Origin: Escherichia coli | GTDB lineage: Bacteria > Pseudomonadota > Gammaproteobacteria > Enterobacterales > Enterobacteriaceae | Assembly: GCF_013122565.1 (NCBI RefSeq) | Contig: NZ_CP053258.1 | Strand: one strand, 5' to 3' | Length of the DNA: 64,000 nt | In this document: positions 30,268 through 60,022 of the stretch, in pieces | How the letters are laid out: every line of letters starts with the position of its first letter | Position numbering within the stretch: position 1 is the stretch's first letter | Program-made: the position numbers and the translations under genes | The notes under the pieces: generated by a model | The model's input: only the letters and a program-made list of their open reading frames with translations | Databases searched by the model: none | What the model was told of the DNA's origin: nothing

Positions 30268-32630
<2,363 letters not shown>

Positions 32631-56273: not shown

Positions 56274-58700
56274 TTATATTTTTTCGATCTCGACCAGATT
56301 CGTGTGCTGCGGGTTTCCCTTCGCCAGTGGTGAAGGGCGCAGAGTGGTTAGCGTATTCACACAGCCTCCATGGTCGATTTTATCGCCAGACATATTGGCC
56401 TCATGCCAGGCTCCCTGGCCCATAGCGCTAACCCCAGGGAGAATGCGTGGTGTCACTTTGGCTGGTAGCCGAACTTCGCCACGATGGTTAAACACCCGCA
56501 CCATATCGCCGTTGGCAATCCCACGTTTCTGTGCATCTATAGGGTTGATCCACACCTCCTGACGGCAGGCAGCCTTCAGGACATCAATGTTGCCGTAGGT
56601 CGAGTGAGTACGGGATTTGTAATGGAAACCAAACAGTTGCAGTGGGAAGGTACTACGTTCAGGGGAGTCCCAGCCTTCAAAGGTTGAGGCATAAACCGGC
56701 AGTGGGCTTATCACTTCATCTTTTTCCAGTTCCCAGGTACGGGCAATTTCCGCCAGCTTGCTGGAATAAATTTCAATCTTACCGGAAGGCGTTTTAAGTG
56801 GATTTGCCTCGGGGTCGTCACGAAATGCTTTGTAGGCGACAAAATGACCATTGGGATCTTTACGCTTATAGATACCCATTTTTTTCAGTTCGTCGTAAGA
56901 CGGTAACGCCGGATCTTTGGCAAGCATTTTGGCGTACAGATGTTGTAACCATTGTTCCTGCGTGCGACCTTCTGTGAACTTTTGATAGACGTCAGGTCCA
57001 AGACGTTTCGCGACTTCACTCAGGATCCAGTAAATCGGTTTACGTTCGAATTTTTCGCTGGTGACTGGCTGGAGGAAAATGAGATATCCCATGTTACCGG
57101 CGTAGTCGTTAGGAATAATATCTTCCTGCTCAACGGTCATCAGGTCTGGCAGCAGAATGTCGGCATATTTTGCCGATGAGGTCATAAAGTTTTCGATGAC
57201 CACAATCATTTCGCATTTCGATTCGTCTTGCAGAATTTCATGCGTTTTGTTGATGTCAGAATGCTGATTAACGAGGGTATTTCCCGCGTAGTTCCAGATA
57301 AACTTAATGGGCACATCCAGTTTATCTTTGCCCCGGACACCGTCGCGGAGTGCCGTCATTTGCGGGCCATGATCGATAGCATCCGTCCAGCTGAAGCAGG
57401 AGATTGACGTTTTGACCGGATTATCCAGCACCGGTAGGCGTTCTATCGTAATGGTATAGGTCGATTCACGCGCGCCACTATTTCCGCCGCTGATGCCGAC
57501 ATTGCCCGTCAAAATAGGCAACATAGCAATAGCGCGTGCGGTCAGCTCACCGTTTGCCTGGCGTTGCGGCCCCCAGCCCTGGCAGATATAAGCGGGTTTT
57601 GCTGTGCCAATTTCACGAGCCAGCTTGATGATACGGTCCACCGGGATACCGGTAATTTGCGAAGCCCACTGCGGCGTTTTCGCTGTTTTATCATCACCTT
57701 CACCAAGAATATAGGCTTTATAGTGACCATTTTTTGGTGCATCTGCGGGTAAGGTTTTTTCGTCATAACCGATGCAGTATTTATCGAGAAAAGGTTGATT
57801 AACGAGATTTTCGTTAATCAATACCCAGGCAATACCCGCCACCAGCGCGGCATCGGTGCCCGGGCGAATAGGGAGCCATTCGTCTTCACGACCGGCAGCC
57901 GTATCGGTATATCGCGGATCGATAACAATCATTTTTGCGTTCGATTTTTCGCGCGCTTTTTCAAGAAGATAAGTGATGCCACCGCCGCTCATACGTGTTT
58001 CTGCCGGGTTGTTACCAAACATCACGACCAGCTTGCTGTTTTCGATATCCGTGGTGCTGTTGCCATCATTACTGCCGTAGGTGTAGGGCATGGCACAGGA
58101 AATTTGCGCAGTGCTGTAGGAGCCATACTGGTTGAGTGAACCGCCGTAGCAGTTCATCAGACGTTTGACCGCCGAGGCGGATGGCGATGAGCGGGTCATA
58201 TTGCCGCCAACGATCCCCGAAGAGTACTGAATATATACAGCCTCATTGCCATATTGTTCGACGGTTTTTTTCAGGCTACTGGCGATAGTATCCAGGGCTT
58301 CACCCCAGCTAATCCGTTCGAATTTGCCTTCGCCGCGTTTGCCCACGCGTTTCATTGGATAATTCAAGCGATCGGGATGATTAATACGCCGACGGATGGA
58401 GCGACCGCGCAAACAGGCGCGTACTTGATGATTGCCATACTCATCGCTGCCGGTGTTGTCAGTTTCCACCCAGGTCACTTCATTATCTTTAACATGTAGA
58501 CGAAGTGCACAGCGGCTACCACAGTTGACGGAACAGGCACCCCAGACCACTTTTTCGCTGGCCTGTTGTACCGCTGCCGCTGCACTGCGCAGGGTGAACG
58601 GTAAAGAAAAACCGCCTGCAGCCAGCGCCAGAGAACCTATCGCGGTAGATTTAACGAGTGTTCTGCGGCTGATGCCCACCATTTGTTCATTTTTGGACAT
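56274..58700 (-). CDS. ynfE: DmsA-type molybdopterin oxidoreductase catalytic subunit (selenate reductase) with Tat signal
   Basis: 808-aa ORF; twin-arginine motif SRRTLVK; paralogue of ynfF. Confidence 0.92.
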   Translation of the reverse strand: MSKNEQMVGISRRTLVKSTAIGSLALAAGGFSLPFTLRSAAAAVQQASEKVVWGACSVNCGSRCALRLHVKDNEVTWVETDNTGSDEYGNHQVRACLRGRSIRRRINHPDRLNYPMKRVGKRGEGKFERISWGEALDTIASSLKKTVEQYGNEAVYIQYSSGIVGGNMTRSSPSASAVKRLMNCYGGSLNQYGSYSTAQISCAMPYTYGSNDGNSTTDIENSKLVVMFGNNPAETRMSGGGITYLLEKAREKSNAKMIVIDPRYTDTAAGREDEWLPIRPGTDAALVAGIAWVLINENLVNQPFLDKYCIGYDEKTLPADAPKNGHYKAYILGEGDDKTAKTPQWASQITGIPVDRIIKLAREIGTAKPAYICQGWGPQRQANGELTARAIAMLPILTGNVGISGGNSGARESTYTITIERLPVLDNPVKTSISCFSWTDAIDHGPQMTALRDGVRGKDKLDVPIKFIWNYAGNTLVNQHSDINKTHEILQDESKCEMIVVIENFMTSSAKYADILLPDLMTVEQEDIIPNDYAGNMGYLIFLQPVTSEKFERKPIYWILSEVAKRLGPDVYQKFTEGRTQEQWLQHLYAKMLAKDPALPSYDELKKMGIYKRKDPNGHFVAYKAFRDDPEANPLKTPSGKIEIYSSKLAEIARTWELEKDEVISPLPVYASTFEGWDSPERSTFPLQLFGFHYKSRTHSTYGNIDVLKAACRQEVWINPIDAQKRGIANGDMVRVFNHRGEVRLPAKVTPRILPGVSAMGQGAWHEANMSGDKIDHGGCVNTLTTLRPSPLAKGNPQHTNLVEIEKI

Positions 58701-58799
58701 AACTCACTCCCTGTTCTTTATCGTTATATAAAAGTTTATATATTGAATATTTAGCGCGCTAATAATAGAGGGAGTCTACCCATTTTGGGTTAAGAGTTA

Positions 58800-58813
58800 T
58801 TAATCCATATCAA
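58800..58813. promoter_or_regulatory. FNR-like site upstream of ynfE
   Basis: TTAAT-ccat-ATCAA against consensus TTGAT-N4-ATCAA, about 100 bp upstream of the ynfE ATG. Confidence 0.4.
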
Positions 58814-58898
58814 TAGAAGGGTATGAGTAATAAGGTGGGATTATGTTGTATGTTCAAATCGCCGGATGTGTCGTATCCGGCGTTCAGTCGATAATGTA

Positions 58899-59204
58899 TT
58901 ACTGTGGTTCGGCAGGCGCGCCATCCTGGGTAGACTGCGCGGGAGCAGAGACGTTACCGCTGGTGGTGCGGGTGTAGAGAATTTTATGCGTATCATTAGC
59001 GCAATGCCCGACGACCTGGGAATCAGGCTGATCAACCTGGTCATTGGGTACAATACTTAACGTGAAGCTGCTTTCGGGTACGCCATTATTGATAATGCGC
59101 TGTGATATATCGCTCTGTATGCGCTCACAGGATCCCGGCGCGGCGAGTACCGCGGGTGAGGCGAGGGCGAGCAGAAGCGTGGCACAGCAGGTTGAGAGTT
59201 TCAT
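58899..59204 (-). CDS. ynfD: DUF1161-family secreted protein
   Basis: 101-aa product with signal peptide (MKLSTCCATLLLALASPAVLA). Confidence 0.8.
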   Translation of the reverse strand: MKLSTCCATLLLALASPAVLAAPGSCERIQSDISQRIINNGVPESSFTLSIVPNDQVDQPDSQVVGHCANDTHKILYTRTTSGNVSAPAQSTQDGAPAEPQ

Positions 59205-59311
59205 CATAAGCTCCTTACGCGAAGATAACTTCTTTAAGCATAGCATTTAACGTGTAAAGTACTGTATTTGCTACTATGATTGAGAATCATCTCTACTCTC
59301 TGGTGACTGAT

Positions 59312-60022
59312 GTGAAATACAAATTACTGCCATGCTTACTCGCGATATTCCTCACAGGATGTGACCGCACAGAGGTAACACTTTCATTTACCCCTGAGAT
59401 GGCCAGTTTCTCTAATGAATTCGATTTTGATCCGCTGCGTGGTCCGGTAAAAGATTTCACTCAGACATTAATGGATGAGCAAGGTGAAGTGACGAAACGT
59501 GTTTCTGGGACTTTGTCGGAAGAAGGCTGTTTTGATTCACTCGAATTACTGGATCTGGAAAATAATACCGTGGTCGCTCTGGTACTGGACGCCAATTATT
59601 ACCGTGATGCCGAGACGCTGGAGAAGAGAGTACGTTTACAGGGAAAATGCCAGCTAGCAGAATTACCTTCTGCCGGGGTGAGTTGGGAAACCGATGATAA
59701 TGGCTTCGTGATTAAAGCCAGCAGCAAACAGATGCAGATGGAATATCGCTATGATGATCAGGGGTATCCGCTGGGTAAAACCACGAAAAGTAACGACAAA
59801 ACATTATCTGTCAGCGCCACGCCATCAACGGACCCGATCAAAAAATTAGATTATACAGCGGTTACTTTACTGAATAATCAACGGGTTGGTAATGTAAAAC
59901 AGAGCTGTGAATATGACAGTCACGCCAATCCGGTGGACTGTCAGCTAATCATTGTTGATGAAGGAGTAAAACCCGCCGTCGAACGGGTTTACACCATCAA
60001 AAATACTATCGATTATTATTAA
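59312..60022 (+). CDS. ynfC: UPF0257-family lipoprotein
   Basis: 236-aa product from GTG 59312 (MKYKLLPCLLAIFLTGC...) with lipobox LTGC. Confidence 0.82.
   Translation: MKYKLLPCLLAIFLTGCDRTEVTLSFTPEMASFSNEFDFDPLRGPVKDFTQTLMDEQGEVTKRVSGTLSEEGCFDSLELLDLENNTVVALVLDANYYRDAETLEKRVRLQGKCQLAELPSAGVSWETDDNGFVIKASSKQMQMEYRYDDQGYPLGKTTKSNDKTLSVSATPSTDPIKKLDYTAVTLLNNQRVGNVKQSCEYDSHANPVDCQLIIVDEGVKPAVERVYTIKNTIDYY

Follow-up and report, generated by a model that had tools for sequence, protein, structure and literature searches.

The stretch of Escherichia coli DNA analyzed here (64 kb in length; hereafter the window) runs as the reverse complement of K-12, and its minus strand carries ynfD, coding for a DUF1161 protein, and ynfE, coding for the catalytic subunit of a selenate/tellurate reductase in the ynfEFGH-dmsD operon. 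The intergenic region between the two spans positions 58701-58898 exactly (198 bp), and beyond ynfD, which is a gene of 306 nt in the K-12 annotation, lie ynfC, speG, ynfB, ynfA, rspA, and rspB. The elements identified in the intergenic region and at its borders, viz., an FNR site, a NarL-type repeat, a -10 hexamer, a palindrome and a ModE-like element in the ynfE leader, and a GC-rich stem-loop followed by a G-poor tract at the end of ynfD, are collected in Table 1. When a 400-nt sequence around the region was used as the query, matches at 90-99% identity, lying over ynfD and ynfE, were recovered in 5382 of 5426 complete E. coli genomes. This is the same locus as the ynfEFGH-dmsD (ynfEFGHI) promoter of K-12: a 241-nt alignment spanning the intergenic region shows seven positions that differ between the window and K-12 MG1655, and the FNR site, the 7-2-7 repeat, the -10 hexamer, and the ModE-like element are all identical. 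The two differences that fall within any of the elements discussed below are both in the loop of the hairpin. A further three fall in the segment from the FNR site to the ynfE ATG, including one between the FNR and NarL sites and one near the start site, and none of them affects the FNR site, the 7-2-7 repeat, or the -10 hexamer.

The transcription start of ynfD was transferred from K-12, where it is listed at 1655563 (+) with 114 reads (Kim et al., 2012), and direct reading shows that the 50 nt printed in that table as its upstream sequence agree with window positions 59230-59280. Among the entries listed in the TSS tables of that study, ynfD is present and ynfE is not (Kim et al., 2012). A scan against Rfam at E≤10 recovered no family above noise in the region, its only hits (BTE, STnc130, and Pseudomon-groES) being sub-threshold chance matches.

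Table 1. Features of the ynfD-ynfE intergenic region and the flanking genes, in window coordinates.
Feature	Position	Strand	Basis
ynfD transcription start, 26 nt upstream of the ATG	59230	-	transferred from K-12 data (Kim et al., 2012)
ynfD CDS, DUF1161 protein, 101 aa; TAA stop at 58901..58899	58899..59204	-	ORF list; alignment to K-12
GC-rich stem-loop in the ynfD 3′ UTR; RNA CGCCGGAU-ACGACAC-AUCCGGCG	58860..58882	-	repeat search, folding
G-poor, C>G tract downstream of the hairpin	58780..58859	-	base counts
FNR binding site, TTGATATGGATTAA on the gene strand, 9/10 consensus positions	58800..58813	-	scans, Myers et al. (2013), conservation
NarL-type 7-2-7 inverted heptamers TAACCCA-AA-ATGGGTA, predicted operator	58777..58792	-	pattern match, position conserved
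-10 hexamer TAGACT	58773..58778	-	direct reading; conserved
Probable ynfE transcription start, A; 66-nt leader	58766	-	derived from the FNR site at -40.5
Perfect 12-nt palindrome TTAGCGCGCTAA, +5..+16 of the ynfE leader	58751..58762	.	inverted-repeat search
ModE-like candidate operator CGTTATAT-AAAAGTT-TATATATTG (+ strand), +22..+45 of the ynfE leader	58722..58745	.	pattern and conservation
Shine-Dalgarno GGGAG, 6 nt before the ynfE ATG	58707..58711	-	direct reading
ynfE CDS, selenate/tellurate reductase catalytic subunit, 808 aa	58700..56274	-	ORF list, K-12 annotation, genome matches

The FNR site and the promoter of the ynfE operon

The sequence-only reading of this region had placed an FNR-like site at 58800-58813, and both direct reading and a consensus scan recover it there as TTAATCCATATCAA, the reverse complement of the gene-strand sequence TTGATATGGATTAA. 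Its center precedes the ynfE ATG by 106.5 nt and falls at about -40.5/-41.5 relative to the start of transcription. It has the 14-bp inverted-repeat form TTGAT-N4-ATCAA and agrees with it at 9 of 10 positions; one half-site is weak, with TTAAT in place of TTGAT, the change being at the most conserved G. A match of this quality is unremarkable by itself, as the consensus with at most one mismatch occurs six times in the window against an expectation of 2.7. The PWM scan that the sequence-only reading had proposed as a check was run with a matrix built from 62 other ChIP-bound FNR sites (Table S6 of Myers et al., 2013). It gives the site 13.5 bits, the third-highest score among about 64,000 window positions, with around one site of such a score expected per 64 kb, or ~0.003 per 198-bp region. 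Scores of this order do occur among the sites bound in vivo, this one falling in their lowest 18%.

Published work on a sequence with identical elements has established that FNR occupies this site in vivo and that expression from the promoter depends on FNR, along with the repression by nitrate/NarL and the distance to the start site. In K-12, the site reported for ynfE under a ChIP-seq peak of FNR is TTGATATGGATTAA (Myers et al., 2013, PLoS Genet 9:e1003565; Table S6), without any listed overlap with Fis, H-NS, or IHF enrichment. Its coordinate there, 1655980 in the older K-12 numbering, corresponds to 1657956 in NC_000913.3, i.e., to the same FNR site. The ynfEFGH-dmsD operon is classed as directly FNR-activated, and its FNR site is placed at -40.5 relative to the start on record (Table 1 of Myers et al., 2013), the start-site source being given in a footnote as EcoCyc or Kim et al. 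(2012). The same study recorded a sigma-70 occupancy at ynfE of 27 under aerobic versus 709 under anaerobic conditions, and fnr-/WT expression ratios of ~0.026-0.027 for ynfE, ynfF, and ynfG, ynfE being down ~40-fold in the mutant (Myers et al., 2013). Its Table S8, which tabulates one earlier study, lists ynfD as FNR-repressed and ynfEFGH-dmsD as activated (Myers et al., 2013). The anaerobic control of ynfEFGH-dmsD by FNR that had been surmised from the sequence is hence borne out by the presence of the same 14-mer at the ChIP-seq peak, the direct activation of the operon, and the conservation of the site across genera. The proposal had further tied the FNR assignment to a start site compatible with a position of about -41.5, and it holds because the start on record places the site at -40.5.

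The K-12 ynfEFGHI promoter was reportedly characterized by Xu, Busby, and Browning in 2009 (J Bacteriol 191:3172). Of two papers that cite their study, one describes ynfE as FNR dependent, and the other speaks of activation of the ynfE promoter by FNR and its repression by NarL. The second paper also reproduced the anaerobic induction and nitrate repression with the ynfE promoter of E. coli Nissle 1917, and the promoter already serves as the trigger of an anaerobic, low-nitrate biosensor in gut E. coli.

To assess conservation, ynfD loci were collected from 80 species, and the ynfD-ynfE spacer was taken wherever ynfE follows. The sequence TTGAYNNNNRTTAA is found 100-108 nt from the ynfE ATG in Escherichia, Citrobacter, Salmonella, Enterobacter, Lelliottia, Leclercia, Silvania, and Kosakonia, and the site is degenerate in the ynfE promoter of Klebsiella. 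Orthologous promoters thus retain both the FNR site and its spacing, and even the defective half-site (TTAA, not TCAA) is itself conserved across genera. Equally fixed are the 7-nt gap between the FNR site and the 7-2-7 repeat and the ensuing -10 element of the form TAnACT, which in Citrobacter and Salmonella is TAAACT. At the 7-2-7 position, Citrobacter, Salmonella, Enterobacter, Lelliottia, and Leclercia carry sequences resembling TACYYMT-NN-AKRRGTA (e.g., TACCTCC-AA-ATAAGTA in Enterobacter), and the orthologous copies are better matches than that of the window (e.g., TACCCAT-AA-CTGGGTA in C. braakii). Within the leader, the alignment shows that the 'CATTAGC' core of the palindrome TTAGCGCGCTAA is also kept across genera. 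Upstream of about -15 from the FNR site, the spacer cannot be aligned even between Escherichia species.

These data bear directly on the alternative that TTGAT-N4-ATTAA is a chance match, or a CRP-type site, with the anaerobic control of ynfE being indirect. The frequency of one-mismatch matches in the window and the defect in one half-site would fit such an account. However, direct reading shows half-sites of the FNR type (TTGA) rather than of the CRP type (GTGA), the PWM expectation for a region of this size is minute, the spacing to the -10 element is fixed across genera, and the same sequence is found at a ChIP-seq peak. The published ChIP-seq and expression data effectively refute this account, and we accord it practically no credence.

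The remaining anatomy of the promoter is consistent with FNR acting as a class II activator. No two-hexamer sigma-70 promoter was called in 58500-59400, as is expected of a class II activator-dependent promoter without a -35 element, and the TAGACT hexamer is placed 21 nt after the FNR site. If the published distance of -40.5 is taken at face value, the start would be the A at 58766, 7 nt after TAGACT. Following the FNR site after a gap of 7 nt, the 7-2-7 repeat extends over both the spacer and the -10 element, its last two bases being the first two of the hexamer. Its two mismatches to the TACYYMT heptamers put it at the level of chance when taken alone (three such matches in the window against 2.8 expected), and it is the conservation of its position together with its overlap with the -10 element that points to the repeat as the likely operator in the repression by nitrate/NarL known from published work. 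We infer both this operator assignment and the exact coordinate of the start from the above arrangement. Folding of the ynfE leader revealed no significant RNA structure (-6.7 kcal/mol, z = +0.7), so the palindromes in the leader are more likely to be sites at the level of DNA.

Taken together, these elements make up a class II promoter at which, under anoxia, dimeric [4Fe-4S]-FNR binds TTGATATGGATTAA (58813..58800, minus strand), ~41 bp upstream of the probable start at 58766, and recruits RNA polymerase to a ynfE promoter with only a weak -10 hexamer and no -35 element. When nitrate is present, phospho-NarL would most likely occupy the 7-2-7 repeat (58792..58777), covering the spacer and the -10 hexamer, and thereby block the FNR-driven recruitment. 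The same logic operates at the E. coli promoter of dmsABC, which codes for paralogous enzymes: it combines a class II FNR site at about -41.5 (given as -41.5 by Myers et al., 2013) with nitrate repression through NarL, and dmsA has been published as being under the control of ModE and FNR. The dmsABC and ynfE promoter sequences, however, cannot be aligned, and the FNR site upstream of dmsA, which we picked by eye as TTGATACCGAACAA, has a defective half-site different from that of ynfE.

The stem-loop at the 3′ end of ynfD

The inverted repeat that the sequence-only reading had noted just downstream of ynfD is present at 58860-58882, with arms CGCCGGAT and ATCCGGCG at 58860-58867 and 58875-58882, respectively, and a 7-nt loop. 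On the ynfD-sense RNA it begins 16 nt after the TAA stop and forms an 8-bp stem with 6 G-C pairs. Folding of the RNA, which had been suggested as a check, yields a stable stem-loop (-13.7 kcal/mol, z = -4.2), and only 1 of 200 shuffles was as stable; the window as a whole contains 24 GC-rich perfect 8-bp stems versus 1.3 in Markov-1 shuffles, these being nested counts. Across seven E. coli strains and one Escherichia of a cryptic clade, no change is seen in the 5′ arm, whereas 5 of the 7 loop positions vary. Just two changes are seen in the stem, A to G and C to T (the latter in a strain with a deletion), and both result in G.U pairs on the ynfD-sense RNA and in C.A mismatches on the opposite strand; compatibility of both with the sense strand would arise by chance one time in four and is weak evidence. 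The opposite strand of the hairpin region also folds stably (-17.8 kcal/mol), and a hairpin on that strand was considered and rejected, as no gene is transcribed that way and the stem variants would give C.A mismatches.

The hairpin is single-copy in each genome. At the same position, unrelated GC-rich hairpins of -14 to -19 kcal/mol are found in Citrobacter, Salmonella, Leclercia, Kosakonia, and Silvania, whereas essentially no comparable hairpin is found at the end of ynfD in Enterobacter and Lelliottia. Some Buttiauxella, Cedecea, and other outlying loci have hairpins followed by 5-7 T in 8 nt, in the manner of canonical terminators. In the window, the 80 nt after the hairpin comprise 19 C and 6 G, and only 0.0125% of 80-nt windows have as few G; this tract overlaps the ynfE promoter, and is also simply an AT-rich promoter sequence.

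The sequence-only reading had offered the hairpin as the possible terminator of ynfD. The stem-loop itself is real, lies on the right strand, and closely follows the stop codon, which upholds that part of the proposal. It lacks a U-tract, the tail AUUUGAAC having 3 U in 8 as opposed to the at least about 5 U in 8 of an intrinsic terminator, and the hairpin is thus not a canonical intrinsic terminator. A scan that requires 5 U of 8 likewise called no terminator-like site on either strand in 58500-59400. That the hairpin might nonetheless work as a conventional Rho-independent terminator, efficient by itself, draws on the stability of its GC-rich 8-bp stem near the stop codon, the three U that come one base after the stem, and the aerobic silence of ynfE though ynfD is then transcribed. 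In addition to the deficient tail and the negative scan, the equivalent hairpins of Citrobacter, Salmonella, and Kosakonia, whose tails are equally poor (1-4 T), speak against this. A search for a mapped ynfD 3′ end in Term-seq supplementary tables of Adams et al. (2021) found no ynfD entry and no coordinate in the range 16578xx-16580xx. We hold such autonomous termination to be rather improbable.

A different possibility is that the hairpin is a decayed or internally deleted palindrome of the REP/BIME type with no specific role at this place. Like the REP/BIME elements of Enterobacteriaceae, it is extragenic, GC-rich, and palindromic; its stem ends, GCCGGAT...ATCCGGC, resemble the outer stem of E. 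coli REP sequences; and the same position is taken up by REP/BIME-like elements in sister Escherichia species, with E. albertii, E. whittamii, and Escherichia sp. E1V33 carrying longer REP/BIME-like palindromes there (CTTATCAGGCC...GTAGGCCTGATAAG), in a part of the spacer where, as noted above, the sequences of Escherichia species are not alignable. Against this, a 51-nt query finds one place per genome in the 5382 E. coli genomes at E≤10, in a blastn search whose word size of 11 misses relatives sharing only the 7-nt stem ends, and not the many dispersed copies per genome that are typical of REP/BIME. The window contains no second GCCGGAT-N(3-30)-ATCCGGC, and NC_000913.3 has no repeat feature between ynfD and ynfE. 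Moreover, the hairpin is a perfect stem-loop of 23 nt, as opposed to an imperfect palindrome of about 35 nt with the REP core, and the retention of its stem while the loop drifts argues for constraint. REP membership, not being supported by the copy number, was rejected on this ground and on that of the missing K-12 repeat annotation. The hairpin may be of REP-derived origin, and we judge a relic devoid of a local role to be rather unlikely.

The perfect 8-bp inverted repeat, with its conserved arms and variable center, also has the pattern of a protein site, i.e., of a DNA operator at which a dimeric regulator would act on ynfE from about -95 to -117. Yet all other genera that retain the FNR/NarL core lack the palindrome and have unrelated sequence in its stead, its variants break the symmetry of the DNA while keeping the pairing of the RNA, it directly follows a stop codon, as 3′ structures typically do, and Table S6 of Myers et al. 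(2013) gives no overlap of the ynfE FNR site with Fis, H-NS, or IHF enrichment. An operator function is accordingly very hard to credit.

All functional statements on the hairpin are inferences of the present analysis. The reading that fits better than an intrinsic terminator is that of a stem-loop defining or stabilizing the 3′ end of the ynfD mRNA, perhaps together with Rho. As ynfD has its own start and is listed as FNR-repressed, and ynfEFGH-dmsD as activated, the two are distinct units, and some boundary between them is needed. The ynfD mRNA would start at ~59230 and end in the 8-bp GC-rich stem-loop (58882..58860), which lacks a U-tract and would most likely act as a barrier at, or stabilizer of, the 3′ ends of ynfD transcripts. 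Termination itself might be either hairpin-dependent and inefficient or Rho-dependent within the G-poor tract, which could be a Rho loading region (58780..58859), and in either form would help to separate the aerobic ynfD unit from the anaerobic ynfE unit. A trimming mechanism reportedly acts at the 3′ ends of Rho-terminated transcripts. By analogy, the end of ynfD may be likened to the stem-loop ends of such transcripts in E. coli, the kind of end treated by Dar and Sorek (2018; NAR 46:6797), in that a stem-loop without a U-tract follows the stop and is succeeded by a G-poor tract with C>G.

A ModE-like element and the inputs to the ynfE operon

The ynfE leader contains a further candidate site, which has the form of inverted half-sites of the CGYTATAT / ATARCG type, their TAYAT motifs being 7 bp apart, as at modA and moaA. 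It was found with the pattern CGYTATAT-N7-TAYATARCG, derived from the sequences upstream of these two genes, which we take to be ModE operators. The element also resembles the K-12 sequences themselves, viz., CGTTATAT-N7-TACATAACG upstream of modA and CGCTATAT-N7-TACATAGCG upstream of moaA. It has two mismatches to the pattern, and matches with at most three mismatches are expected 0.62 times per 64 kb. At the same distance from the ATG, sites with 1-3 mismatches are present in all 23 Escherichia, Citrobacter, and Salmonella loci (e.g., CGCTATAG-ATATCAA-TATATAGCG in Salmonella); the corresponding position in other genera has 5-8 mismatches, which amounts to background, whose mode is about 7. 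As mentioned above, dmsABC is ModE-dependent according to published work, and the ynfE leader carries a candidate ModE operator. Our literature search, whose scope lay outside dedicated studies of ModE targets, returned no link between ModE and ynfE. The combined proposal that the element at 58722-58745 is a genuine and hitherto undescribed ModE operator, and that the ynfD hairpin with the G-poor tract is a Rho-assisted insulator, is in our view unlikely.

The region consists of two separate and ordinary features that are largely known, and the control of ynfEFGH-dmsD by FNR and NarL has already been published. We are confident in the overall reading, in which the ynfEFGH-dmsD promoter is of the class II FNR-activated type and the preceding ynfD mRNA ends in a stable stem-loop that probably serves as a 3′-end barrier or stabilizer. 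This has little importance beyond annotation. What the present analysis adds are a precise placement of each promoter element in the sequence of this strain; evidence, drawn from a comparison of genera, for the conservation as one unit of the sub-optimal TTAA half-site with the 7-nt gap and the NarL-type repeat; and a corrected reading of the ynfD hairpin as something other than a canonical terminator. Were the insulator genuine, aerobic transcription of ynfD would be kept out of the anaerobic ynfE operon. Were the ModE operator genuine, the selenate/tellurate reductase operon, along with dmsD, would be tuned by molybdate besides oxygen (via FNR) and nitrate (via NarL), through a layer of regulation specific to the Escherichia-Citrobacter-Salmonella clade. 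For the operon of a molybdoenzyme, such an input from molybdate would come as no surprise and is what one would expect, given the ModE dependence of its paralog dmsABC.

The ynfE leader and its start region

Downstream of the inferred ynfE start, the leader carries a sequence resembling a ModE operator, its position counted from that start (see the table). In the locus comparison, Escherichia, Citrobacter, and Salmonella all keep this ModE-like sequence at a constant place in the leader, whereas Enterobacter, Klebsiella, and Kosakonia lack it. The 12-nt palindrome near the start retains a 'CATTAGC' core across genera, and the equivalent place in Enterobacter, Lelliottia, and Leclercia is occupied by a short GC hairpin (e.g., CCCGGTTGTAGTCACGGG).

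Features of the ynfD-ynfE region and related sites (window coordinates unless a locus is named)
Feature	Position	Location or remark
FNR site of ynfE	58800-58813	weak half-site, TTAA, not TCAA
Perfect 12-nt palindrome TTAGCGCGCTAA	58751-58762	shortly after the inferred ynfE start site
Candidate ModE-like operator CGTTATAT-N7-TATATATTG	58722-58745	ynfE leader, +22..+45
REP/BIME-like palindrome pairs	first ~100 nt past the ynfD stop	L003-L005
ynfC-ynfD divergent spacer	59205-59275	
Site antisense to ynfC	about 59800	K-12 1656955 (+), downstream of speG
Other high-scoring FNR matrix matches, GTGATCTTGATCAC and TTGTTTTACCTCAA	4604-4617 and 32418-32431	
Natural deletion, E. coli SC434 (NZ_LR778142.1)	1496-1712	L089
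Klebsiella FNR-site position	about 1840-1880	L066, L069, L070, L075, L080

Variation in and around the intergenic spacers

The 23-nt hairpin that follows ynfD in E. coli is replaced by REP/BIME-like palindrome pairs in E. albertii, Escherichia sp. E1V33, and E. whittamii, where the ynfD-ynfE spacer measures 243-250 bp, as against 198 bp in the E. coli window and 130-158 bp in most other genera. A natural deletion in E. coli SC434 begins right after the hairpin, so that the 3' region of ynfD is fused with the end of ynfH; the ynfE promoter and ynfEFG are lost, and dmsD is retained. About 100 of 5382 genomes have a match that spans under 80% of the length of the 400-nt query. On the other side of ynfD, the start sites of ynfC and ynfD lie back to back at a distance of 56 nt (Kim 2012), and their shared spacer appears among the RpoS-holoenzyme SELEX targets (Shimada 2017). 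The site antisense to ynfC is listed in the supplementary data of Adams et al. 2021.

The FNR site and its conservation

Two further sequences in the window score as high as the ynfE site with the FNR matrix. One of these, GTGATCTTGATCAC, is identical in sequence to an FNR site near tppB that was predicted but found to be unbound (Myers 2013), and its position corresponds roughly to the K-12 coordinate of that tppB-proximal site. At ynfE, the weak half-site is itself kept in nearly all promoter-retaining genera of the comparison (loci L002-L081), which suggests that a sub-optimal site has been selected for and is not a product of decay. In the five Klebsiella loci, the corresponding position reads TTGACCAGGGATAA, with four mismatches, and falls within a long hairpin, GACCTTATCCCTG-cattgac-CAGGGATAAGGTC; given this placement, the ynfE promoter of Klebsiella may be organised differently.
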